This document shows, in pieces, positions 17,076-61,566 of a stretch of DNA of 64,000 nt (within the stretch, counting starts at the first letter, position 1; every line of letters starts with the position of its first letter). A program made the translations under genes and the position numbers. The DNA comes from an uncultured Clostridia bacterium. GTDB taxonomy: Bacteria; Bacillota; Clostridia; Christensenellales; UBA1242. The DNA is taken from the NCBI GenBank assembly GCA_947595235.1, contig CANQEP010000001.1, positions 7,451-71,450 of the forward strand, written 5' to 3'. The notes under the pieces are model-generated. The model searched no databases. It saw only the letters and a program-made list of their open reading frames with translations, and was not told where the DNA came from.

Positions 17076-17107
17076 AAAAAAACAAGTCGCCAACTTCTTG
17101 ACGACTC
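17076..17107 (-). terminator. Putative intrinsic terminator after ileS
   Basis: Minus strand: GAGTCG-12 nt loop-CGACTT followed by GTTTTTTT. Short stem, so moderate confidence. Confidence 0.45.
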
Positions 17108-17167
17108 ATTTTGAATTTTTATTTGTAAAATTTATGCTTTTTTCATATTATTTTTTGCAAACTTATA

Positions 17168-20100
17168 TTATTTTTTGCAAATTTTAACTTTTACGCCTTC
17201 AACTTCAAAAGATGATTTTGCCTCTGACTTTGAAAGAGTTTTTTGCTCTGCCAAGGTCTCTTTCAAAATGGTTTCAACAAAGTTTGTTGGAACATCACCC
17301 TCAAGGTCAAGATATATTCGGTCGGTTATTTCAAGGCCAAGACTCTTTCTTGCGTCTTGCACATTTCTTATAATTTCTCGCGCAACGCCCTCTTCTTTTA
17401 GTTCGCTAGTTATTGTTAAATCAAGCGAGACAATGACCTCTTCATTGCTAAGAACTGGCATATTATTTTTAGCGATATACGAAACCAAGATGTCTTCTTT
17501 GTTAAGGCAAATCTCTTCTTCGCCCCTAACATAATATTTTCCGTCTTTATATACAAGGTTTCCGCTCTTAATTGCCCTTGTTATAACTGGTATCTTGCTA
17601 CCCATGGTCTTGCCAACTGTTGCAAAGTTCACTTTGTAGTCTATGCTTGCAATGTCGTTGACGTCGCTAATGAGTGCCACCTCTTTGACATTTAGTTCTT
17701 CCTTTATGATGTCAAGGTGCTTTCTTGCAATTTCGTAGTCCTCTTTCTTTGTGAAGGCAACTTCAAGGAGTGACAGTGGCTGTCTGTTCTTTATGTTATT
17801 TTTGTTCCTTATCCCCCTCGCAAGGTGAATAATCTCTTGCAACAAATCAACCTCTTTCAAGAGTGCATCATCTTTGAACTTCTTGTCAATGTTTGGCCAC
17901 TTTTCAAGGTGCACACTCTCTTCGTCGGTCAAACTTTTGAATATCTTTTCTGAGATAATCGGAGCAACTGGCGCAATGATTTTGCAGAAATTCGTTAGAA
18001 CATAGTACAGCGTTTCATAACCGCTCTTCTTGTCTTCGTCAAGCCCACTCGCCCAGAAACGCCTTCTTGAACGGCGGATGTACCAGTTTGAGAGCCCGTC
18101 AATAAAGTCAACAATAGGAGTTATATACTCATCAACGCGGTAGTTATCCATGCTGTCCTTTATCTGTTTTTCAACGTTATAGAGTTTAGCCAAAATCCAC
18201 TTGTCCAAACTATTTTTAGGCTTAACATCTGCGTTAATGTCTCCAACAAAGCCGTCAATCTTTGAATAACTTTGATAAAAGCAAGCGCAGTTGAAAAGCG
18301 GCAAGATTACTTGTTGAATTTTGTCTTTAAGCCCGCTCTCGTCGAACATCATGTCATTGACGAGCATGGCATTTGAACTGTACATATAAAGCCTGAACGC
18401 GTCTGTTCCATAAGTTTTCATAAGTTCCATTGGGTCGGTGTAGTTCTTGGATTTCTTTGAAAGTTTTTTGCCGTCTTTCGCAAGGACAGTCCCATGAACA
18501 ATGCAATTTTTGTATGCCGGCTTATTAAACAAAGCGACCGACAAAACATGCAAATAATAGAACCAGCACCTAATTTGACCAGTGTACTCAACAACGAAGT
18601 CTGACGGAGAGTGCGTATCGAACCATTTTTTGTTCTCAAATGGATAATGTAGCCTTGCAAATGGCACACTTCCCGACTCAAACCAGCAGTCAAGAACTTC
18701 GTTCACGCGCTTCATCTCGTGCCCGCACTCGCATTTTAGTGTTATTTTGTCAAGATATTGCTTGTGAAGGTTGGCGACCTTTTGCCCGCTCTCCTTCTCT
18801 ATTTCTTCAATGCTACCAAGCACTTTTCTCTTTTTGCAGACTGGGCACTCCCAAACTGGAATTGGCGTGCTCCAATATCTGTTTCGCGAAATGTTCCAGT
18901 CGCGCGCGTTGTTGAGCCAGTTGCCAAATCTCCCCGTCTTTATGAAGTCTGGCACCCAATTTACTTTTTCATTTTGCTTGATAAGTTCGTCCTTTATCTT
19001 GTCTATTGAAAAGTACCAAGCGTCCATGGCCTTGTAAATTAGCGGAGTTGAACAGCGCCAGCAATGAGGGTAGTTGTGGACAATGGAGCCGTCGGCAACA
19101 TATATATTGTTCTCTTTAAGGTAGCGGATGACGTCGCTGTTGGCGTCAAAGACCATTTTGCCTTCAAACAACTTGACGTCACTTGTGAAGCGACCTTTTT
19201 CATCAACAGGGCAAACAAGAGGAACGCCATTTTTCTTGCACGCCCAATAGTCGTCTTCACCAAAGGCGGGCGCGATGTGGACAATGGAAATTCCCTCGTT
19301 CTCGTCTACAAATTCAGCCGAAATAACCTTAAACGCCCCTTCATCTGCCTTATCAGAAAAGCAGTCGAAAAGCGGCTTGTATCTTCTGCCAACAAGTTCG
19401 CTCCCCTTAACAACTTTCAAAACATTTGGCTTTTCGCCGAACACATTTTTGTACTGGCCAAGGTTCTTGTTCGATGCAATCAAGATGTCGCCACTCTCAG
19501 TAAGAACATAGGCATATTCAATGTTGTCGTTAACGGCAAGCGCCATGTTTGAAGGAAGAGTCCAAGGCGTGGTTGTCCATGCAAGAAAGTATACTTTGTG
19601 TCCGTCAAGAACCTCGTCTGTCAAGAACTTTGCCATGACCCACCTGTCTTGGCGTGGCCTTGTTGAGTCGGCTTCCCTTGTCTCACTTATAGAGAGAGCG
19701 GTCTCGCAACGCGGACAATATGGAGTAACGCGGTAGTCTTTATAGATGAGCCCCTTATTATAAAGTTCCTTGAACGCCCAAATAACGCTCTCCATGAATG
19801 GAGTGTCCATGGTCTTGTACGCTTTGTCATACTCAGTCCAGCGCGCCATTTCGCGAACATACTCTTTCCACGAGTCGTTGTTTTGTGAGACTATTTCACG
19901 GCACTTGTCATTGAACTTATCAACGCCGATTTTGTTCTCAATCTCTGTTTTGTTGTCGATGTTTAAAAGCGCCTCGGCTTGAACTTCGATTGGAAGGCCG
20001 TGGCAATCCCAACCCCACTGGCGAGGCACCGAGTAACCTTGCATTGTGAAGTATCTTGAAATCATGTCCTTTATGAACGAGACAAGCACAGTCCCATGGT

Positions 20101-20552: not shown

Positions 20553-20746
20553 GCAATTTGCCAAGACTTGCTCGCAAACGCACGCAAAAAACCCAGCCTT
20601 TTATTTTTGAACTTTGAGAACTTGTTTTCTGACATCTTGCAAAAAATAAAATTTCATTTGTAAATTTTGCATTATTTTGATATATTTTTTACAAATTAAT
20701 TTTTAGTTTTGCATTATATGGCGTTTATGGTCATAATTTTTAAGCC

Positions 20747-22203: not shown

Positions 22204-23625
22204 CTAACTCGCCTTTAAATTTATATGCAACGCCGGGCGAACGCACCCATTGGGATTCTGGTTATCGTCGTCAATTATGGTTGTGGCCCCATTGCAACGA
22301 ATAAAACATGATTGATAGGAAGATGGACCAGCAGATCGTAGCCACCAAAAACAAGTCATATTCCTATAAACTGTTCTATATGTATATGAGGGGTAGGGAT
22401 AACATATGGCATTGTTCCCTATTGCAAAGTCTGTAGGGGAACAATATCTATTTACATCTTTATTCTTAAAAACTCCGTTTGGGTTCGCCATCTCCCAATA
22501 ACTCTTAAGATATATCTTGTCTTGCGTTGGTATTCCAGAGTTATCGCTCATTGCATTGTCATAATTACCTGTTACATTATTCCTTATAGTGGTCTGTTGT
22601 ATTATCCCTTTTTCATTATCGTCAAAGGCAGTTCTAATAAAAGCATCATTTAGCCATGACCGTATATCTGAGTTTGCCCATAAGTTATTATTCTTTGCGC
22701 TAAATGCAATATTTGATACTATCGCTTGAGTGCTAAGTATCTCGGCATATCCATCTTGTCCCATAGTTTCGTAATTGAGTATGTACCATTTTAATGGCTC
22801 AACCTTAAACCATGCCATTCTCCCAGTTGTTGGCGACGAATTGTCTTTATATTTACTATAGCTGTCACACTTTGTCTCTGTTCCTCTAGCGTACATTTCT
22901 CCGTTATATTCATATAATGTCCATGTCGTTGACCCGACTTTAAAACTTTCTTTTGTCTCTTGACCTTGACTATACCAACTCTCCAAAGTTGAGTTCATAC
23001 TCGAACCAACATACGTTTGTGGAAAACTACCAAATTCTAGAGTCCTTAGCCTAAATGATGAACTCGTTGAACCAACCGTCTCTTGAGCCCCAATCTCTGG
23101 CGGTACCCATGTTGTATATTGATAAATATCGTTTTTGCTAATATTTGCCGAGGGGTCAATATTGACTATTGCCCCGTCTTCAATATATATCGCGGGTCCT
23201 TGTTCTGCAGTACATCCCGTTATTGTTCCAGCCTTTATTGTTAGCGTTGCACCAGTGGAGACATATATTCCTCCACCATATTGTGCCGAACAATTTGTTA
23301 TTGTTCCTCCATTCATGGTGAAGGTTGCGCCAGTTGAAATGAAGACTGCACCGCCATAGGTTTTGTTTTTCCCCGAAATAGTGCCACCATTCATGGTGTA
23401 GTTTGTGTTGGGGTCAATATATATTGCTCCACCTTTTTGACTGGTTGGTGCTGAACTTGCTCCGCTGTCTGACGCACTTCCGCTTGCGCGCACCTCGGCA
23501 GAAAAGTTTTTGTTGCTCGTTTCTTTCACTTTTGACGACATAAGTGGTAAAATGATGCCAAGTGCCAAAGCCGAAATAACAAATATAATGGTCAATGAAA
23601 CTAATAGTTTTTGCTTGATTTTCAT
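22204..23625 (-). CDS. Signal-anchored surface protein: Pmp-like beta-helix repeats plus a C-terminal WWLRS...VRPAL domain (paralog 1)
   Basis: ATG 23625 follows AGAGGGA. TM anchor LLVSLTIIFVISALALGIILPL. Repeats GGAIYI../YGGAVFI..ATFTMNGGTI../YGGGIYV. C-terminal blocks FGSFPQTYVG, WFKVEPLKWYILNY, CSPTDFA, WWLRSAG, CVRPALHINL. Paralog of 60059..61471. Confidence 0.75.
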   Translation of the reverse strand: MKIKQKLLVSLTIIFVISALALGIILPLMSSKVKETSNKNFSAEVRASGSASDSGASSAPTSQKGGAIYIDPNTNYTMNGGTISGKNKTYGGAVFISTGATFTMNGGTITNCSAQYGGGIYVSTGATLTIKAGTITGCTAEQGPAIYIEDGAIVNIDPSANISKNDIYQYTTWVPPEIGAQETVGSTSSSFRLRTLEFGSFPQTYVGSSMNSTLESWYSQGQETKESFKVGSTTWTLYEYNGEMYARGTETKCDSYSKYKDNSSPTTGRMAWFKVEPLKWYILNYETMGQDGYAEILSTQAIVSNIAFSAKNNNLWANSDIRSWLNDAFIRTAFDDNEKGIIQQTTIRNNVTGNYDNAMSDNSGIPTQDKIYLKSYWEMANPNGVFKNKDVNRYCSPTDFAIGNNAICYPYPSYTYRTVYRNMTCFWWLRSAGPSSYQSCFIRCNGATTIIDDDNQNPNGCVRPALHINLKAS

Positions 23626-23650
23626 AATTTCCCTCTTTTTTAACACAATA

Positions 23651-23710: not shown

Positions 23711-23923
23711 ATGAATTTAGCAAAGAAAGTTGGAGAAAACATAAAGTCAGCGCGAAAGGCCAAGGGTTTAACGCAGAAAGAGGTTGCCAAGATTTTATTC
23801 ATGACTCAACAGCAATACAGCCGATTTGAGAACGGCATCTTTGAACTCAACTACCAGCAACTTCTTGACATCTGCAAAATCCTCGACATCACCCCCAACG
23901 AGATCTTTGACTTCGGCATATAA
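23711..23923 (+). CDS. XRE-family helix-turn-helix transcriptional regulator (70 aa)
   Basis: MNLAKKVGENIKSARKAKGLTQKEVAKILFMTQQQYSRFENG... is the classic Cro/C1-type HTH. Divergent from paralog 1. No obvious SD. Confidence 0.8.
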   Translation: MNLAKKVGENIKSARKAKGLTQKEVAKILFMTQQQYSRFENGIFELNYQQLLDICKILDITPNEIFDFGI

Positions 23924-23930
23924 TCTTTTA

Positions 23931-24180
23931 GTTGCGCGCGACCAATCGCGCGCCCCAACCTCCACGCACCTAAGCCATATTTTTCACAAATGGCTTCGAA
24001 AGAGAAACGCGGGCAACCTATTTTGTTGCGAGCCATTTTTATGGCTCGCTCCTCACTCACCGCATATAAACGAACTTTAAGCGAAGAGCATCGAAAAGAA
24101 AAGGTCGCGACCATAAAGGTCAGCGGCCTTTTGTTTTCTTCCCTCTTCATCTTAAATTTCGCTTATCTGCTTCTTTATAC
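23931..24180 (+). repeat. Copy A (full length) of an unrecognised modular structured repeat, candidate ncRNA
   Basis: GTTGCG + hairpin GCGCGCGA-CCAA-TCGCGCGC, junction, module X (53 nt, 23966-24018, identical to 59266-59318), hairpin GCGAGCCAT-TTTT-ATGGCTCGC, second junction, module Y (24066-24161, matches RC of 59671-59768), tail CTTATCTGCT. Confidence 0.5.
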
Positions 24181-24238: not shown

Positions 24239-24367
24239 TTTTTCGGGGCAAGATTTGCGCCTATAACAAGGCATAAAAAAATTTCCAGGCAGGAGTTTAT
24301 ATGAAATAAATGACTGTCTGGAAATTTTTTTATAACGCAGTTAGAGGCGCAAAGATTGCCCCGAAAA
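24239..24367 (-). terminator. Nested hairpin terminator region after rpsI
   Basis: Outer ~22-bp stem TTTTCGGGGCAAGATTTGCGCCT / AGGCGCAAAGATTGCCCCGAAAA encloses an inner hairpin TTTCCAGGCAG...CTGTCTGGAAA flanked by A7 and T7 (bidirectional). Confidence 0.6.
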
Positions 24368-24781
24368 CTAGCGCTTGCTGAATTGAGGAGCCTTGCGGGC
24401 TTTTTTCAGACCATACTTCTTCCTCTCTTTCATGCGTGGGTCACGGGTCAAGAAGCCTGCGGCTTTGATGTCTGCCTTGTAGCTCTCATTGTTAATAACA
24501 AGAGCGCGTGCAATACCATGACGGCAAGCGCCTGCTTGACCAGCAAGGCCACCACCATAAACATTGACATTGACGTCATACTTCTTTTCGGCACCAACCA
24601 AAACAAGAGGTTGCTTAACGATACCAATCAAAGTATCTTGCTTAAAATACTCTTCAACTGGAACCTTGTTAATTAAGATCTTGCCCTCGCCAGCGGTCAA
24701 TCTAACCCTTGCGATAGCCTTTTTTCTTCTTCCGGTTCCCCAAGTTTGCTCTTTTGCTTTGTTTACAATTTTCTTTGCCAT
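24368..24781 (-). CDS. rpsI: 30S ribosomal protein S9
   Basis: 137 aa ending ...[29 protein letters not shown], the canonical S9 C-terminus. Confidence 0.95.
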
Positions 24782-29910: not shown

Positions 29911-30141
29911 ATGAGAAAAGATGTTACAGTGAAGGCGCTCATGAAAGCCACTGGCGAGGTTGTTCCCCTCTCCATTTTGTGGGAAGACGGCAGAGAAATA
30001 GAGATTGACCGCATTCTTGACGCAAGGCCAAGAGCAAGTTTGAAAGGTGGTGGCATGGGCGTTAGGTACACAATAAGAGTAAAAAATCAAGAGCGGTTTT
30101 TGTTTCTTGATGGCTTTATTTGGTTTGTTGAAGTTGACTAA
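29911..30141 (+). CDS. Small conserved-looking hypothetical protein (76 aa)
   Basis: MRKDVTVKALMKATGEVVPLSILWEDGREIEIDRILDARPRASLKGGGMGVRYTIRV... Convergent with dinB. Family not named with confidence. Confidence 0.5.
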   Translation: MRKDVTVKALMKATGEVVPLSILWEDGREIEIDRILDARPRASLKGGGMGVRYTIRVKNQERFLFLDGFIWFVEVD

Positions 30142-30200
30142 ATTTCAAATTTTAATTTTTTATTTGTAAAATTTTATGTAATTTTATTGATTTTTTACAT

Positions 30201-46383: not shown

Positions 46384-46460
46384 ATCAAAATCTCCTCTTC
46401 ATTTATTGACTATATTATAACACATTTTTTCAATAATGCTAGACCTTTTTGCAAATTTTT

Positions 46461-47624
46461 TTAGGTTTTTATGAATTTTAATGCATTTTTGCTGTATTCA
46501 AGCGCAATTTCTTTGTTTTCTTCTGCCATTTCGCTTGTTTTTTCGTTAAATTTGCCAAGAATAGCCACAAAATCGTCGTTTCTTAGTTTTGTATTTTTCA
46601 TGAGCATCAAGTAGATGACTGTTATGAAATTGAGTTTGTCATCGTCGGTCAACTCGCCGTCTAACATTTCGCGTGCAGAGAGCATGAACTTCTCGCTTTC
46701 AAAGTCAACAAGTTGTGTCTTTAAAAGAAGGTCGCAGAGCATATATTGAATGTCAGAGTCAACTTCCTTCGCCTCACACATGAGTTCAACAAGGCTGGTC
46801 ACGTTCTCTTCTTCCACCTTCGACAAACTTTCGGGCACCGCATACGCTTCATGAATGTCAGAGAGAATATACTTATACTTGTCCTTTGCGCTTCCCTTTA
46901 TCTCGCTGTTGAGCGCGCAGAACTTTTGCTTGTTTTCTTCAAAGTTCCCTTCCAAAATAGAGCCCACAACAAGCTGTACGTCGCCAAGTTCTTTCATCTT
47001 TGCGAAGGCAACTTTTCTCTTTTTTATTTCTTCTTTTTCTTGGCGATACCTTTTTAGAAGGTTCTTCCCCTCGTCGGTGTTCTCGTAGTTTATTCTTGAA
47101 AATGTCAAGTATAAGCAATACGCCAAAGTGGCCGCCGTCAAAATTCCCGCGCCATAGTAACTGAAATATATGGCAAACAAGATGCCCAAAAACGCGATAG
47201 TGTTTGTCTGCTTTCCAACAACAAACCTTGAACCAATTCTTATTGTGTCCCCTTGGCGGGTCTCCAAAACAAAAACATTCCCGTCGATGTTAAGAAGTTT
47301 TCCGCTCCCGCGGTATGCACTTGTATAAAAACATACAATGTCATCAGTCTGCGCGTCAAAGACATTTTTGTATGGCTCAATAACAACAAGGTCGGTCGCC
47401 GACGCGCCAAAATAGTGCCTTGCGTCAAATGTTCCGTCAAGTTTATATTTTAAAAACCCCGGATACAGTGAACGATAAAAGCAAAAGATATAACTTATGG
47501 TCAAGAGCGCAAGCAAAAGCGCAAGCACCAAAAATTTGACAACCACTTTCCCTCTGCTGTCTTTGACTTGCGTTTCTTTTGCTATGTTCAAATCATAAAC
47601 ATCATTTTTCACTATTCGTTCCAC
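46461..47624 (-). CDS. Membrane protein with a peptidase-S26-like but Ser-less ectodomain and a helical cytoplasmic domain
   Basis: 387 aa. The TM1 - beta-rich segment (DLVVIEPYKN...DDIVCFYT...GDTIRIGSRFVVGKQ) - TM2/3 layout parallels SipW but lacks the SMxP box. The C-terminal ~200 aa are helical. Confidence 0.45.
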   Translation of the reverse strand: MERIVKNDVYDLNIAKETQVKDSRGKVVVKFLVLALLLALLTISYIFCFYRSLYPGFLKYKLDGTFDARHYFGASATDLVVIEPYKNVFDAQTDDIVCFYTSAYRGSGKLLNIDGNVFVLETRQGDTIRIGSRFVVGKQTNTIAFLGILFAIYFSYYGAGILTAATLAYCLYLTFSRINYENTDEGKNLLKRYRQEKEEIKKRKVAFAKMKELGDVQLVVGSILEGNFEENKQKFCALNSEIKGSAKDKYKYILSDIHEAYAVPESLSKVEEENVTSLVELMCEAKEVDSDIQYMLCDLLLKTQLVDFESEKFMLSAREMLDGELTDDDKLNFITVIYLMLMKNTKLRNDDFVAILGKFNEKTSEMAEENKEIALEYSKNALKFIKT

Positions 47625-53560: not shown

Positions 53561-53641
53561 CCCTTTTATTATGGTTTAATTATACGCAATTTATTTTGCG
53601 TGTGTCAAATGATTTGTGTGCAATAAATTGTTTGATAAAAA

Positions 53642-53670
53642 TTGAAACTTGCCTTTTTTATTTGTAAAAT
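53642..53670 (+). promoter_or_regulatory. pyk promoter
   Basis: TTGAAA (53642-47), 17 nt, TAAAAT (53665-70). Confidence 0.55.
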
Positions 53671-57576: not shown

Positions 57577-58965
57577 CTAATTTTCATTTGCGACTTGACC
57601 TTCTTGCTCATTTGCAGTTGTCAAGGCCTCTTGCCCGCCCGAAAGTTTCATCTCTTTTTTTGCCTTAACCATACGAATAATGCTGTCCACCGTTGAAACA
57701 ATAAAGCCTTGCACAATAGTTAAGTAGTATGTGAGAAGTCTCCACGCCAGCAGTCCAAGAACAACATTTGCTTGGTCAACGCCAAGTAGCATCTCGCCAC
57801 TGAAAAGGAACATGAACGAAAGTTCCATCATTCCCGTTCCACCAGGTAGCGGGATGACCACCGATGCCATTTGGCAAACAATGAACTTGGTCATGCAAAT
57901 AAGTAACAAACTTAGGGTATTGACCGCCCCCGTCACGGTTGACGGAGTGAGCGCCATAACAACGGCAAAAGGAATTGCAAAATATGAAAGAACATCGATA
58001 AGCCCAAAGAATATGCAGGCAAAGAGCGTGCCCTTGTTCTTTCGAAGGTACTTCATGGAGTTTTGGTATTCAAGCACTTGGCTCATAAACTTGTTATAGG
58101 TCTTTCTGTAGTCCTTCACAATTCGCAATTTGTAGCCAAGCCTAACGATGCGCCTAACAAGAGTACGTCCAACAATCTTGCCACTGCCAATAAGAATGAA
58201 CAAAACGCTTGTGAGCGCAGTGAATATCAGCCCCACATAAGCAACAATCTTAAAGAGCGTGAACATGAGGTTCAAAAGTGGCGAAGAAATTGGAATGAAA
58301 GGCACGCCAAAAATGAGGAACGCCAAGATAACAAAGGTGTAGATGAGGTTGTAGATAATGAGTTTTATAATTGGAATGCTGGTTGCAATCCCGGGCGAGA
58401 CTCCCGACCTTGTGAGGTTGAGGATTTGCGACGGCTGACCGCCGACCGAGAACGGGGTTATTGCATCAAAATACTTGCCCACCGAACTGACTTTGTAACT
58501 CACAAAAATTCTCTTTTTGCCCGTGGACTTTTTGATAAGGCAAAAGAACATCATGGTGTCGGCAAAGAACATGAGCAAAAATAGTCCCAACCCAAGAAGT
58601 AGCCACCAAAGTTTGCTCCCCTGCCTTGAAATTATCTCAGAAATAGAAACGCCATCCGTGTCTTTCAAGAAAGAGTTGATAATGACCGCCATAACAACAA
58701 TGTTTAGCGCAAAGAAAATGAGGTTCATTATAATGCTTCGTTTTTTCTTCTTTGGCTTTTCGGTCTCTATTGCCTCTTGCAATCTTTCACGGGCAATGCT
58801 TTCGTCAACAAGCGCGTCGTCAAGTTTGTCATCAAAAACAGATATCTGCCCTTCAATGACATTGTTTTCGCTCTTGTTCTCTTCTTTTTCATGAAAAACG
58901 GGTGCCTCTTTTGGCTTAGGCACTCCGTCAATAGTCAGTTGTTCATTTTCTTTCTTTTTTGCCAC
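57577..58965 (-). CDS. Flippase-like (UPF0104 / MprF-TM-like) integral membrane protein
   Basis: ~8 TM segments, acidic N-terminal region, GGQPSQILNL loop. The track start 59004 (TTG) lies inside a strong promoter, so GTG 58965 or a later start is more likely. Confidence 0.6.
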   Translation of the reverse strand: MAKKKENEQLTIDGVPKPKEAPVFHEKEENKSENNVIEGQISVFDDKLDDALVDESIARERLQEAIETEKPKKKKRSIIMNLIFFALNIVVMAVIINSFLKDTDGVSISEIISRQGSKLWWLLLGLGLFLLMFFADTMMFFCLIKKSTGKKRIFVSYKVSSVGKYFDAITPFSVGGQPSQILNLTRSGVSPGIATSIPIIKLIIYNLIYTFVILAFLIFGVPFIPISSPLLNLMFTLFKIVAYVGLIFTALTSVLFILIGSGKIVGRTLVRRIVRLGYKLRIVKDYRKTYNKFMSQVLEYQNSMKYLRKNKGTLFACIFFGLIDVLSYFAIPFAVVMALTPSTVTGAVNTLSLLLICMTKFIVCQMASVVIPLPGGTGMMELSFMFLFSGEMLLGVDQANVVLGLLAWRLLTYYLTIVQGFIVSTVDSIIRMVKAKKEMKLSGGQEALTTANEQEGQVANEN

Positions 58966-58988
58966 TTGCTTTCTTCTTATACTAAAAT

Positions 58989-59017
58989 ATAATACCAAAG
59001 GCAAAAAAATGTGTCAA
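58989..59017 (-). promoter_or_regulatory. Strong sigma-A-type promoter for the flippase-like gene
   Basis: Minus strand: TTGACA (59017-12), 17 nt, TATTAT (58994-89). Confidence 0.6.
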
Positions 59018-59160
59018 TTATTTTAGCCATTGTTTACTTTAATGCATAACCTTTACTCTTATTCCTCTCTCCTTGCCTCCCACAAGAAGTTGATGCAAAA
59101 TTATTGCAAAAGTTATATTATATTGCCCAATTGTGGCACAAAATAAGTTTCCCACTCAAA

Positions 59161-59230
59161 GTAAAGGGTCCCAACAAGGTGAGAGTGCCGAAGTTCGTGG
59201 GGACCCCTTTACTTCGGGGGCACTCTTTTT
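59161..59230 (+). other. Degenerate reverse copy of motif M with interleaved stems and a T-run (terminator-like)
   Basis: GTAAAGGGTCCC (59161-72) pairs with GGGGACCCCTTTAC (59199-212). AGAGTGCCGAAG (59182-93) pairs with CTTCGGGGGCACTCT (59211-25). Followed by TTTTT. A possible promoter TTGATG-17-TTATAT lies at 59090-59118. Confidence 0.35.
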
Positions 59231-59418
59231 GTTGCGACTCGCTTACGAGTCGCTCCAACCTCACCGCACCTAAGCCATATTTTTCACAAATGGCTTCGAA
59301 AGAGAAACGCGGGCAACCAAAAAGGTTTGCCCGCATTTCTTTTTCTTTGCCCTTTATAAAAACTATGTCTTATCTGCTCCTTCGCGTTTTCAAATATAGC
59401 GGTTCAAAGGGAAAGAAG
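59231..59418 (+). repeat. Copy B+ of the modular structured repeat (H1-J-X-tail)
   Basis: GTTGCG + hairpin GCGACTCG-CTTA-CGAGTCGC, junction CCTCACCGCA, module X (59266-59318 identical to 23966-24018), hairpin GCGGGCAA-N10-TTGCCCGC, tail CTTATCTGCT...CGGTTCAAAGGGAAAGAAG. Confidence 0.5.
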
Positions 59419-59480
59419 TTGATATTATTTATATATATTTTCCCTAAACTTATATCTCAAATCTCTTGCGTCCTAACCAA

Positions 59481-59528
59481 GTGCCCCCTCCCACGGGGGA
59501 AAGGTGGTGCCTTCGGCACCAAAAGGGG
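59481..59528 (+). repeat. Motif M copy 1 (two-hairpin 48-nt element)
   Basis: GTGCCCCC-TCCCAC-GGGGGAAAGGTGGTGCCTTCGGCACCAAAAGGGG. Hairpin 1 is C-run/G-run, hairpin 2 is GGTGC/GCACC. Confidence 0.45.
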
Positions 59529-59539
59529 TAATTATTTCA

Positions 59540-59710
59540 TCAACTTTTTAATGTTGACTTTGATATTAAAACCACTATTGAGTAGAACCGCCAAAGTGCG
59601 ACACTTGAAATAAGTATCCTCTTCTTTCCCTTTGAACCGATTTGTTCGAAGACACAAAGGAGCAGATAAGCGAAATTTAAGATGAAGAGCGAAGAAAAGA
59701 GAACCACCAT
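59540..59710 (-). CDS. Speculative 56-aa hydrophobic peptide inside repeat copy B'
   Basis: The ATG 59710 lies inside the hairpin arm ATGGTGGTTC. Product MVVLFSSLFILNFAYLLLCVFEQIGSKGKKRILISS.... Shares FSSLFILNFAYLLL with the copy A peptide. No SD. Confidence 0.2.
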   Translation of the reverse strand: MVVLFSSLFILNFAYLLLCVFEQIGSKGKKRILISSVALWRFYSIVVLISKSTLKS

Positions 59711-59808
59711 AACACTATTGCTGTATGGTGGTTCTCTTTTCAAAGCCCTTCGCTTAAAGTTCGTTTATGTGCGGCGAAGTTTGGAGCGACTCGCAAGCGA
59801 GCCGCAAC
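59621..59808 (-). repeat. Copy B' of the modular structured repeat (H1-J-Y-tail), inverted relative to B+
   Basis: Minus strand: GTTGCG + hairpin GCGGCTCG-CTTG-CGAGTCGC (one G-T pair), junction, module Y (matches 24066-24161), hairpin GAACCACCAT...ATGGTGGTTC, tail ending CGGTTCAAAGGGAAAGAAG (perfect 19-bp inverted repeat with 59400-59418). Confidence 0.5.
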
Positions 59809-59815
59809 AAAAAAA

Positions 59816-59864
59816 GTTCCCCACTGTCGATGGGGAAAGGTGGTGCCTTTAGCACCAAAAGGGG
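59816..59864 (+). repeat. Motif M copy 2
   Basis: GTTCCCCA-CTGTCGA-TGGGGAAAGGTGGTGCCTTTAGCACCAAAAGGGG. On the minus strand its complement ends as hairpin CCCCA..TGGGG + AACTTTTTTT directly before copy B'. Confidence 0.45.
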
Positions 59865-59944
59865 AGGTTAAATATCAACTTTTTATGTTTTTTTATTTTT
59901 TAGGAAGAACTTTGACTTGAAAAAATCTATACCTTTAATCCTTC

Positions 59945-59976
59945 AAAATAAAAAGAGGATACTTTATCTCAGTATC
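59945..59976 (-). terminator. Intrinsic terminator of paralog 2
   Basis: Minus strand: GATACT-GAGATAA-AGTATC followed by CTCTTTTTATTTT, immediately after motif M copy 3. Confidence 0.6.
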
Positions 59977-59977
59977 T

Positions 59978-60025
59978 CCCCTTTTGGTACTTACGTACCA
60001 CCTTTCCCCATCATCAGTGGGGCAC
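59978..60025 (-). repeat. Motif M copy 3, in the 3' UTR of paralog 2
   Basis: Minus strand: GTGCCCCA-CTGATGA-TGGGGAAAGGTGGTAC-GTAA-GTACCAAAAGGGG. Hairpin 2 covaries (GGTAC/GTACC versus GGTGC/GCACC in copies 1 and 2). Confidence 0.5.
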
Positions 60026-60058
60026 TTAAAGTAGGTGCGCGCGACAAGTGGCTCGCAA

Positions 60059-61471
60059 CTAAATCGATAGGTGCAAAGCCGGACGCACCCCTCCGTTCCC
60101 GTAATCGACAGAAATGCGGCTGAGGCCCCCAAGGTTGTCTACGTCACAGGCATTATAAGCCGTCCAGCCCGCCGAACGGAGCCACCAGTTGCACGTCCCT
60201 GTCCTATAGTTCGTCGTGTAACTAGTATACATATAACAATAATTACTTAATGCAAAGTCTGTCGGAGAACATATCCTTGATGCGTAACCATTCCCTACGT
60301 TAAAGTCCTCAGCAAACATGTCGTGACCCATTTCGTAATATGTCTTGCAGTATACATAGTCCTCTGTCGATTCTCCAGTCCACGAACTTGGTGCACTATT
60401 ATATTCTTTTGTTATTCCATTCTTGTTTTTCGTTAGTGCTATTATTTCTCTCTCATTCTCATCAAATGCTGTTTCGTAAAATTCGTCTCTTAGCCATGTT
60501 TGCAGTTCAGAACCTTTCCAGTTATTCCCTGCACTTGTTGTTGGATTGAATCTTATGTAACTTGTCAATGCCAACTCACTCAACAACTCTATATTCTCGG
60601 TCCCACTCTGCCATGCGTCGTAGTTCAATATATACCACTTTATAGGCTCAACCTTGAACCAAACCGCTGTTCCAGTTGCTTTGACTGTTGTCCCATTCTT
60701 GTATGTGTATGACGAACCCGAACTATATCTATAACTACTTCCCCTTGCATATAGTTGTCCGTCAGTATACTCATACGCATCCCATACTTGCGAATCACGA
60801 ATGGTATATGTTTTTACCACTTTCTTTCCAGAATACCAATTCTCAAGTTGGTCATTTAAGTCATCCCCAACATATGTTTGTGGATACGAGCCAAAGTACA
60901 TGGTTCTTAGTTTAACCGTAGACAAAACCCCATCATATGTTCCCCCCATGGTCTCCTCTTCACCCATGACATATAGTGGGACATAATAATCAACTATATT
61001 TCCATCCACAACACTTGTTCCGTCAATGGTGAGGTTGCCACCCTCTTCAACATAGATGGCGGGACCACCTTTCTCGGCAGTGTTGTTGAGTATGTTCCCG
61101 CCATTTATAATGACCTTTCCACCATTTTCTATATATATTGCTCCGCCATACATGGCACGACAGTTCTTTATTGTTCCCCCATTCATGGTAAATGTTGCTT
61201 TGTTAGAAACATAGACCGCCCCACCATAAATATTTTTATGGTTCTCTATGGTTCCACCAGTCATTATATATGTTGCACCCTCTTCAAGGTATATTGCTCC
61301 ACCTTTTTGGCTTTTGTTGGCTGAACTCGCTCCGCTCTCATCCGCAAGAAAGTTCCTTGTGTCCAGTTTTCTTTCCTCATTTATTGCCAACGGCAAAACA
61401 ACCCCAAAGCAAATGGCAATTATAATTGCAAATGGAATAACAAAACCAAATATCCTCTTTAATTTATTCAC
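60059..61471 (-). CDS. Signal-anchored surface protein: Pmp-like beta-helix repeats plus a C-terminal WWLRS...VRPAL domain (paralog 2)
   Basis: Best start is GTG 61471 (GGGGG 7 nt upstream), giving NKLKRIFGFVIPFAIIIAICFGVVLPL, collinear with the paralog 1 N-terminus. Blocks SQKGGAIYL, YGGAVYV, ATFTMNGGTI, FGSYPQTYVG, WFKVEPIKWYILNY, CSPTDFA, WWLRSAG, GVRPALHLSI. Confidence 0.75.
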   Translation of the reverse strand: MNKLKRIFGFVIPFAIIIAICFGVVLPLAINEERKLDTRNFLADESGASSANKSQKGGAIYLEEGATYIMTGGTIENHKNIYGGAVYVSNKATFTMNGGTIKNCRAMYGGAIYIENGGKVIINGGNILNNTAEKGGPAIYVEEGGNLTIDGTSVVDGNIVDYYVPLYVMGEEETMGGTYDGVLSTVKLRTMYFGSYPQTYVGDDLNDQLENWYSGKKVVKTYTIRDSQVWDAYEYTDGQLYARGSSYRYSSGSSYTYKNGTTVKATGTAVWFKVEPIKWYILNYDAWQSGTENIELLSELALTSYIRFNPTTSAGNNWKGSELQTWLRDEFYETAFDENEREIIALTKNKNGITKEYNSAPSSWTGESTEDYVYCKTYYEMGHDMFAEDFNVGNGYASRICSPTDFALSNYCYMYTSYTTNYRTGTCNWWLRSAGWTAYNACDVDNLGGLSRISVDYGNGGVRPALHLSI

Positions 61472-61566
61472 TCCACAACCCCCTATTGGCAAGGTATTTG
61501 CAAGAGCGCATAATAAAAACACTCAGCGCTTGCACCCCGCCAAAATTTTCACTTTTTTCGCACAAT

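Follow-up and report, generated by a model that had tools for sequence, protein, structure and literature searches.

Pneumococci carry three co-clustered repeat families, the modular BOX, RUP and SPRITE, all of which fold strongly when transcribed (Croucher et al., PMC3049150). SPRITE elements resemble Rho-independent terminators and are enriched between convergent genes; the pneumococcal repeats cluster and insert into one another (PMC3049150). REPs are short stem-loops with a terminal tag, and most of their families fall into sub-families whose stem residues are alternative but still complementary (Di Nocera et al., PMC3733652). G-T pairs are frequent in REPs, most of which occur downstream of genes, either alone or in dimers or groups (PMC3733652).

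Much is on record about small palindromic interspersed repeats in Proteobacteria and streptococci, but very little about those in uncultured Clostridia of the gut or the environment. We analysed 64 kb of the genome of an uncultured Clostridia bacterium; this whole stretch is called the window. It is an ordinary piece of chromosome, with dnaE, ileS, murC, murB, uvrC, prfA, pgk, tpi, pyk, PFOR, truA and rplM-rpsI. Two loci in it hold three related copies of a composite sequence, A, B+ and B'. We consider it fairly probable that these copies belong to a family of small mosaic DNA repeats that is specific to the lineage, non-coding, interspersed and palindromic, with terminator-like centres. With its GTTGCG-tagged hairpins joined to terminator-like palindromes, the family would be a new case of such repeats.

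Anatomy of the J, X and Y modules

The unit plan is a hairpin, J, followed by an imperfect palindrome of about 110 nt, X or Y, and sometimes by a 47-nt 3' extension. The features of the two loci are as follows.

23714-23923, plus strand, and 24368-24781, minus strand: convergent neighbours of copy A, a 69-aa XRE/HTH gene (HTH_3, E=1.6e-13) and rpsI
23925-23965, plus strand: J1; T-run, GTTGCG at 23931, stem 23934-23941 / 23946-23953 (GCGCGCGA/TCGCGCGC), loop CCAA, linker CCCAACCTCCAC; 65.7 bits
23966-24018, plus strand: X, left arm only, from terminus GCACCTAAG to apex ...GCGGGCAACC, cut exactly at the hairpin apex
24019-24061, plus strand: J2; TATTTT, GTTGCG at 24025, 9-bp stem GCGAGCCAT/ATGGCTCGC, loop TTTT, linker TCCTCACTCACC; 65.3 bits
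24062-24170, plus strand: Y, complete, about 109 nt, termini GCATATAAACG... / ...CGCTTATCTGC
24094-24141, plus strand: centre of Y in copy A; A-rich, stem AAGGTCGC..GCGGCCTT, then TTTTGTTTTCTT; terminator-like both ways
57577-59004, minus strand, and 60059-61522, minus strand: an LPG_synthase_TM/flippase-like gene and a DUF6273 surface-protein gene, with B+ and B' in the 1,055-nt gap between them
59223-59265, plus strand: J3; T-run, GTTGCG at 59231, stem GCGACTCG/CGAGTCGC, loop CTTA, linker TCCAACCTCACC; 76.5 bits
59266-59377, plus strand: X, complete; termini GCACCTAAG.../...CTTATCTGC, apex GCGGGCAACC-AAAAA-GGTTTGCCCGC, flanks GAAAGAGAAA / TTTCTTTTTC
59378-59424, plus strand: 3' extension of B+, common to B+ and B' and absent in copy A
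59615-59661, minus strand: 3' extension of B'
59662-59772, minus strand: second copy of Y, a full palindrome, with 87-95% identity to copy A over the outermost 30 nt of each arm
59773-59816, minus strand: J4; T-run, GTTGCG at 59808, stem GCGGCTCG/CGAGTCGC (one G-T), loop CTTG, linker TCCAAACTTCGCC; 69.4 bits
60024-60067, minus strand: J5, degenerate and chimeric; 19.5 bits, E=0.07

J consists of a T-run, GTTGCG, a perfect but variable stem of 8-9 bp with a 4-nt loop, CGC, and a linker of 12-13 nt that is almost all pyrimidine. GTTGCG followed by such a perfect stem and loop occurs at 23931, 24025 and 59231 on the plus strand and at 59808 on the minus strand, apart from one unrelated chance match in a coding region. 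J1 starts 8 nt past the stop of the XRE/HTH gene, whereas J3 and J4 are each preceded by a hairpin plus T-run (59204-59230 and 59837-59817, respectively). In J1, J3 and J4 the flanks GTT...AAC are set off from the stem by a bulge of 3-4 nt. The apex of J2, AGCCAT/ATGGCT, is the small internal hairpin of X.

Four window copies and one from a related genome were aligned. The tag GTTGCG follows a T-run in all five; 40 of 40 stem cells are paired, and five of the eight pairs have changed on both sides. No shuffle out of 500 reaches the observed pairing and covariation, and sliding the partner by 1-3 columns lowers the pairing to 20-50%. Two points of an earlier note on this DNA are borne out here, namely that the modular family is real and that its differing stems stay paired.

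Run unfiltered over the window and 14 related loci, the covariance model of J matches only the known copies, J5 and the copies of the closest relative described below. J5 combines GTTGCG, a left arm like that of J2 (AGCCA), the loop CTTG and a right arm like that of J1 (TCGCGCGC). The TAG stop codon that ends the DUF6273 gene (60059-61522) overlaps this GTTGCG, and the unit that follows J5 is Z, of a second repeat family that clusters with the J, X and Y copies, not X or Y.

By folding and by inverted-repeat search, X and Y are each one long imperfect palindrome, not chains of independent hairpins. The arms of X, 51 nt long and 76% complementary, span 112 nt. In Y (24062-24170 on the plus strand; 59772-59662 on the minus strand), 109-111 nt long, the head GCAYATAAACGAACTTTAAGCGAAG pairs with the tail CTTCATCTTAAATTTCGCTTATCTGC; the separate conserved tail of the earlier note is thus the right arm of this palindrome. 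The extreme termini GCAnnTAAG / CTTATCTGC are common to X and Y. At their centre, a purine- or A-rich tract, a GC-rich stem-loop and a T-rich tract follow one another, in the shape of a bidirectional intrinsic terminator. In the Y of B', the apex is swapped for a perfect 18-bp stem (GAAAAGAGAACCACCATA/TATGGTGGTTCTCTTTTC).

The core of X is exact over 53 of 53 nt (23966-24018 and 59266-59318), and the wider block 23951-24018 is 96% identical to 59251-59318 (blastn E=6e-27). The exact block covers precisely the left arm of X, beginning at the terminus (one extra base matches leftward) and ending at the apex, and contains the local hairpin AAGCCAT-N11-ATGGCTT. For Y, the head at 24060-24099 is 90% identical to the reverse complement of 59735-59774 (E=7e-8), and the tail at 24134-24176 is 95% identical to that of 59656-59698 (E=2e-14). 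Within the window, the strings CTTATCTGCT, ATAAACGAACTTTAAGCGAAG, TCTTCATCTTAAATTTCGCTTATCTGCT and AAGCCAT-N11-ATGGCTT are confined to these loci.

The strings quoted in the earlier note all lie where it had placed them, and the 53-nt block, the Y head and tail blocks and the four GTTGCG hairpins are likewise confirmed. It had described A as J-X-J-Y, B+ as J-X and B' as J-Y, joined at a junction. The modules are correct, and identity indeed begins at the GCA terminus of X; the X of copy A is a left arm only, however, and B+ and B' also carry the extension. Among the features that it had missed are the X and Y palindromes, the 47-nt extension, J5 and the inverted arrangement of B+ and B'. The combinations found are J-X(left arm)-J-Y, J-X-extension, J-Y-extension and J-Z, with J(half)-J-other in a relative.

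B+ and B' together form one inverted pair of 606 nt (59217-59822). Its inverted-repeat arms 59341-59424 and 59615-59698, of 84 nt and 77% complementary, contain the 47-nt extension. Z2 and Z3 form another inverted doublet.

All copies lie at the 3' ends of genes. The window contains two X, two Y and five J, the latter all extragenic and including one inverted pair (J3/J4); blastn and the J covariance model find no further copy in it. So low a count is evidence against a repeat family, within a survey that covered 64 kb of the host genome and a few short related contigs. Across the window and the relatives, J shares the direction of the upstream gene in six of seven copies; its linker, unpaired in minimum-energy folds, carries CUCC, CCUC and CCUCC motifs. 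This co-orientation and the single-stranded C/U-rich linker are also predicted by an RNA role, and we count them against the repeat reading.

Comparison with described repeat families

J is closest in kind to REPs and BIMEs. The likeness lies in a short tag beside a stem of 6-9 bp, in alternative stem sub-families with occasional G-T pairs, and in a position 3' of genes, where the repeats stand singly, in inverted dimers or in mosaics with further motifs (PMC3733652). J differs from REPs and REPINs in its tag, a T-run plus GTTGCG instead of GTAG or CGTC, and in its host, of a Clostridia lineage, whereas the phyla in the survey of GTAG repeats are Proteobacteria, Cyanobacteria, Chloroflexi and PVC. 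Furthermore, every J is joined to a pyrimidine linker and a long palindrome, and no RAYT was seen in the window or in the relatives' loci.

BOX (boxA-boxB(n)-boxC in Streptococcus, with boxD/E/F in S. suis) is likewise a composite modular Firmicute repeat whose modules are variously combined, strongly folded if transcribed and clustered with other repeat families (PMC3049150). In contrast to BOX, the J, X and Y modules are individually palindromic with swapped apexes, and they show neither a tandem boxB-like array nor a target-site duplication. X and Y share with SPRITE an over-long terminator-like hairpin with a T-rich tract at the 3' ends of convergent genes, such as the XRE gene and rpsI on either side of copy A. 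They differ from it in being symmetric (A-tract, stem and T-tract, hence bidirectional), in lying within a palindrome of about 110 nt with defined termini, and in taxon. BOX and SPRITE are likened to J, X and Y by description, not by sequence homology.

With MITEs (Correia, RUP, Nezha, bcr1), X and Y have in common a length below 300 bp, inverted repeats at the termini whose pairing makes one long hairpin, and a non-coding, intergenic nature. Unlike MITEs, they are not AT-rich relative to the genome (43-47% versus 42.6% GC). Their flanks read CACC before GCA and TGC before TCCTT or TTCTT, and no direct repeat occurs at the three complete palindromes; the missing target-site duplication at the GCA...TGC boundaries is evidence against the repeat reading. 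No cognate IS with matching ends was found in the window. Compared with an integron attC site, R''(RYYYAAC)...R'(GTTRRRY), the order in J is reversed (GTTGCG at the 5' side, ..AAC at the 3' side), GTTGCG violates GTTRRRY, and the window has no integrase.

The centres of X and Y combine a GC-rich stem-loop with a T-run, as expected of putative intrinsic terminators. A terminator scan made one call, 24115-24131 plus TGTTTTCTTC, in the Y of copy A. By inspection and folding, the apexes of X and of the Y of B' (stem plus TTTCTTTTTC and TTCTCTTTTC, respectively) also appear terminator-like; they were not called because their stems and loops exceed the limits of the scan. Distinct modules are differently combined at different loci, as in BOX or BIME mosaics. 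By analogy, then, X and Y seem to behave like SPRITE- or MITE-type palindromes and the module combinations like BOX or BIME mosaics, with no membership in a named family established.

Several other candidates were rejected. For a group IIC intron remnant, a CRISPR repeat, a retron msr/msd, the PATE ends of IS200/IS605 and a tRNA-like minihelix (a stem plus NCCA in three of five J copies), the defining features or the partner genes are missing.

Relatives and sequence collections

Orthologous loci were taken from relatives through their S9 and LPG-synthase homologs. The closest relative, whose S9 is 96% identical, is represented by two samples, L002 and L003. Directly past the rpsI terminator, both read TTTTTGGTTGCGACTCGCTT / CTTTTGTTGCGTGCCGCTTGCGGCACGC. 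This sequence consists of half a J hairpin, GGTTGCGACTCGCTT, which is the left part of a J3-type hairpin cut in the loop, and then a full J with another stem. The stem of the half J, GCGACTCG, is that found at 59231 in the window. These J copies are on the rpsI strand, at a non-orthologous position and in the orientation opposite to that of copy A.

Past the hairpin the two samples diverge: L002 runs into a linker and the start of a new palindrome (GTCTTCCTCACCGCATAAGAGCC), and L003 goes on with CGCAAC..., so that a solo perfect palindrome, GTTGCG...CGCAAC, results. Both contigs stop within about 35 nt, inside the repeat, as short-read assemblies are expected to do at a multi-copy repeat. The ancestral palindrome at the rpsI terminator has its distal arm in the window and in L096, a more distant relative; in the two samples this arm is missing at that position, where J begins.

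In relatives with 85-91% S9 identity and 75-78% LPG-synthase identity, J, X and Y are absent from the matching gaps. None of the other genomes and metagenomes searched contained X or Y, and because of this a mobility of their own would be read from two loci only, which counts against the repeat reading. By comparison of these loci, presence/absence and position polymorphism among relatives is evident.

The sequence collections gave no counterpart. Rfam, searched with the whole window, has no match at the gathering threshold, and at E<=10 only chance matches of miRNA-type long hairpins, far below threshold; this agrees with the earlier note, which had recognised no known RNA class. The exact Y-tail 20-mer has one chance coding match among 185,579 species genomes (Lachnospiraceae TWA4). 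The exact X-core 20-mer matches no metagenome or viral contig, nor do the Y-tail 20-mer and the Z core match any viral contig. A gapped J pattern hits 76 loci in metagenome contigs, none with an 8-bp hairpin; these appear to be chance matches, mostly in GC-rich sequence. With blastn in distant mode, nothing similar was found in plasmids and phages.

Translated searches were equally negative, and revealed no protein or IS homology. The six-frame translation of the three copies, submitted as one synthetic protein against 5.8 billion proteins so that spurious ORFs called over sister copies would also be matched, has no match at E<=10. The long open reading frames across the copies (23851-24150, minus strand; 59104-59613, plus strand) have no relative among 5.8 billion predicted proteins. 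As no counterpart exists in the collections searched, the repeat family is likely undescribed, and of a well-known kind, that of small interspersed palindromic or mosaic repeats.

Origin of the paired stems and mosaic joins

The three copies fold 6-9 SD more stably than shuffled sequences (z = -6.4 to -8.8). The earlier note had taken G-T pairs as a sign of an RNA read in the given orientation. On the given and the complementary strand, the folding energies are -91.4 and -102.3 kcal/mol for copy A, -66.1 and -79.9 kcal/mol for B+, and -82.1 and -85.5 kcal/mol for B'. Counted by G-U pairs, the complement equals or exceeds the given strand in A and B+ and has one fewer in B'; the only part that favours the given strand is the J4 stem taken by itself, via its single G-T. 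Since the complementary strand is as stable or more in all three copies, the strand argument for an RNA fails.

The covariation points away from RNA as well. Flanks that are 96-100% identical adjoin stems that have no interior base in common, which requires an exchange of modules or a copying of DNA from arm to arm. Judged from these alignments, gradual compensatory evolution of an RNA cannot yield identical flanks beside wholly different stems, and the earlier view of the covariation as RNA selection has to be given up. Tagged REP families are described with a pattern of this kind (PMC3733652). Perfect "covariation" next to identical flanks can thus arise from the dynamics of DNA palindromes.

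Three rearrangements are broken at a hairpin loop: the X of copy A cut at its apex, the half J of the relative, and the chimeric J5. We reject a simple insertion of J2-Y into a complete X as the origin of copy A, as the displaced right arm is missing downstream: no significant similarity to it was detected there (378 of 500 shuffles score at least equal). Truncation or recombination at the apex is therefore preferred. By sequence comparison, propagation at the DNA level with reshuffling of units is apparent, as are mosaic joins at defined boundaries with breakpoints at loops.

In the repeat reading, J would be a REP-like "tagged palindrome" standing ahead of X or Y, and relatives carry other types of palindrome. 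The agent may be an enzyme acting in trans and encoded elsewhere, or recombination or template switching at extruded hairpin apexes; either would produce varied module combinations broken exactly at loops. Quasipalindromes are known to mutate by template switching. Behind the apparent covariation would stand DNA palindromes that fall into sub-families or whose arms are corrected against each other, rather than selection on a single RNA strand, and such a correction would account for the perfect stems. When transcribed as the 3' UTR of the upstream gene, the units may form very stable hairpins that terminate transcription or protect the 3' end, a function also suggested for REP/BIME and SPRITE. 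By analogy with the families above, a role as 3'-UTR hairpins or terminators is what they probably have when transcribed.

Structured sRNAs, or sRNAs derived from 3' UTRs, in the given orientation are an unlikely alternative. Such an RNA would comprise a stabilising J hairpin at its 5' end, an unpaired C/U-rich seed for Shine-Dalgarno regions, a second hairpin and an intrinsic terminator, and its tail would be kept for other reasons. The perfectly kept J stems, the unpaired linker with its CUCC and CCUCC motifs, the hairpin plus T-run closing each unit and the shared orientation of six of seven J copies with the upstream gene all fit this architecture. No sigma-70-like promoter lies upstream of any J, however; the sole promoter-like site, 59090-59119, is cut off from J3 by the terminator-like hairpin and T-run between them. 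The conserved tail beyond the T-run is a mere complement of the head, the opposite strand folds equally well or better, and identical flanks beside wholly different stems are unlike divergence under RNA selection. Rfam has no match either, and X and Y are missing even in close relatives.

That J is the folded recombination or cleavage site of a single-stranded-DNA enzyme (HUH/RAYT-like or integrase-like), with X, Y and Z as cargo or partner palindromes, is quite unlikely in our estimate; it would amount to a genuine new REP-RAYT-like or attC-like system in Clostridia. A fixed tag (T-run plus GTTGCG) with variable perfect stems recalls the GTAG/CGTC REPs (PMC3733652). The GTT...AAC flanks with their bulge in J1, J3 and J4, the perfect GTTGCG...CGCAAC palindrome of L003 and the breaks at loops also suit such an enzyme. 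Against this, no sizeable open reading frame of the 64-kb window encodes a transposase, integrase, reverse transcriptase, HUH, RAYT or recombinase, and no RAYT-like, HUH or recombinase gene is found in the relatives' loci; the lack of a transposase, RAYT or recombinase in the window is evidence against the repeat reading too. The tag is neither GTAG nor CGTC, and GTTGCG misfits the attC core GTTRRRY.

We give a similarly small chance to J being the recognition site of an undescribed single-stranded-DNA transposition or recombination system in Clostridia, or to the series J, linker, hairpin and terminator having been co-opted as a multi-copy anti-Shine-Dalgarno sRNA. A system of the former type would be aimed at hairpin loops and terminators and would nest palindromes within one another; perfect apexes swapped wholesale within identical flanks would be the result. 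Should there be a dedicated enzyme, hairpin-targeted recombination would be readily studied here, thanks to the loop-precise breakpoints.

An invertible DNA switch with B+ and B' as its inverted-repeat arms is very improbable, as is a segmental duplication that travelled with DUF6273 paralogs and left B+ and B' behind. B+ and B' do form the 606-nt inverted pair, and DUF6273 paralogs lie near both loci; but the arms are only 77-89% identical, their middles differ (X versus Y), and no invertase is nearby. The flanks are not equivalent: copy A is upstream of paralog 1, with the XRE gene in between, and B' is downstream of paralog 2. We hold least probable of all a locus of type I toxin-antitoxin kind, an idea raised in the earlier note, in which hairpins would regulate translation of a short hydrophobic peptide (..FSSLFILNFAYLLL..). 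An open frame with a hydrophobic stretch runs for 26 aa from a TTG in A and for 56 aa from an ATG in B'. The 14 residues shared by the two nevertheless correspond to the T-rich right arm of Y, and their conservation is mirrored in the left arm. Moreover, the start codons and upstream sequences differ without a common SD, the C-termini are unrelated, B+ has no such peptide, and 5.8 billion proteins include no homolog.

A family of mosaic palindromic repeats, the reading that we prefer, would also help explain breaks in MAG assemblies, given that the contigs of two relatives end inside it.

Contig ends and the rpsI terminator

10521-10599 of L002, J repeat at the contig end
1623-1705 of L003, J repeat at the contig end

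In the closest relative, both independent short-read assemblies of the rpsI locus (L002 and L003) stop within the J repeat, the module carrying GTTGCG and a perfect stem. The two sequences part directly after the J hairpin: one continues into a solo GTTGCG...CGCAAC palindrome, the other into the linker and a new palindrome. They may represent a filled-versus-empty pair, which would delimit a mobile unit.

24240-24367 of the window, rpsI terminator region
10420-10525 of L002, the same
10440-10640 of L086, a relative, the same
10275-10640 of L096, a more distant relative, the same

The rpsI terminator is itself an imperfect palindrome of 128 nt. Its loop, CAGTCATTTATT.CATATAAACTCCTG, is kept in relatives, which have two tandem terminator units; its + strand sequence, AGGAG-N7-ATG AAA TAA, resembles a start-stop mini-ORF.

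Elements around the second repeat locus

59090-59230 (+), sigma-70-like promoter and hairpin stretch
59480-59528 (+), Z repeat
59816-59864 (+), Z repeat
60027-59978 (-), Z repeat

The first stretch starts with a sigma-70-like promoter, TTGATG-18-TATATT. Nested hairpins that could form pseudoknots (AAGTAAAGGGTCCC / GGGGACCCCTTTACTT; GAGAGTGCC / GGCACTC) take up the next ~100 nt and are closed by a T-run immediately 5' of J3, the J copy at 59223-59265 (+). The stretch may encode a small RNA or serve as an attenuator; its fold has a z of only -2.5.

Z is a second repeat family, with the invariant core GGGGAAAGGTGGT-[hairpin]-ACCAAAAGGGG and a CCCC-loop-GGGG hairpin 5' of it. Its inner stem shows compensatory differences among copies, GCC/GGC versus AC/GT. 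Neither Rfam nor a search of viral contigs gave a match to Z. Z2 and Z3 make up a 214-nt inverted doublet (59814-60027).

DUF6273 paralogs and shared upstream blocks

22204-23646 (-), DUF6273 surface-type protein
60059-61522 (-), its paralog
17093-17131, 30134-30172 and 53632-53670, AT-rich promoter-like blocks, first set
17130-17185, 20684-20719 and 46424-46479, the same, second set

Each repeat locus has one DUF6273 paralog nearby, in non-equivalent placement relative to the repeats; both paralogs contain internal repeats of 78-nt period (23222-23405; 61170-61275).

Several genes, including that of pyruvate kinase, have shared AT-rich promoter-like blocks upstream. These are of two kinds, one with TTTTTTATTTGTAAAAT at its end and the other centred on ATTTTTTGCAAA, and may constitute a common promoter or regulator-binding motif.
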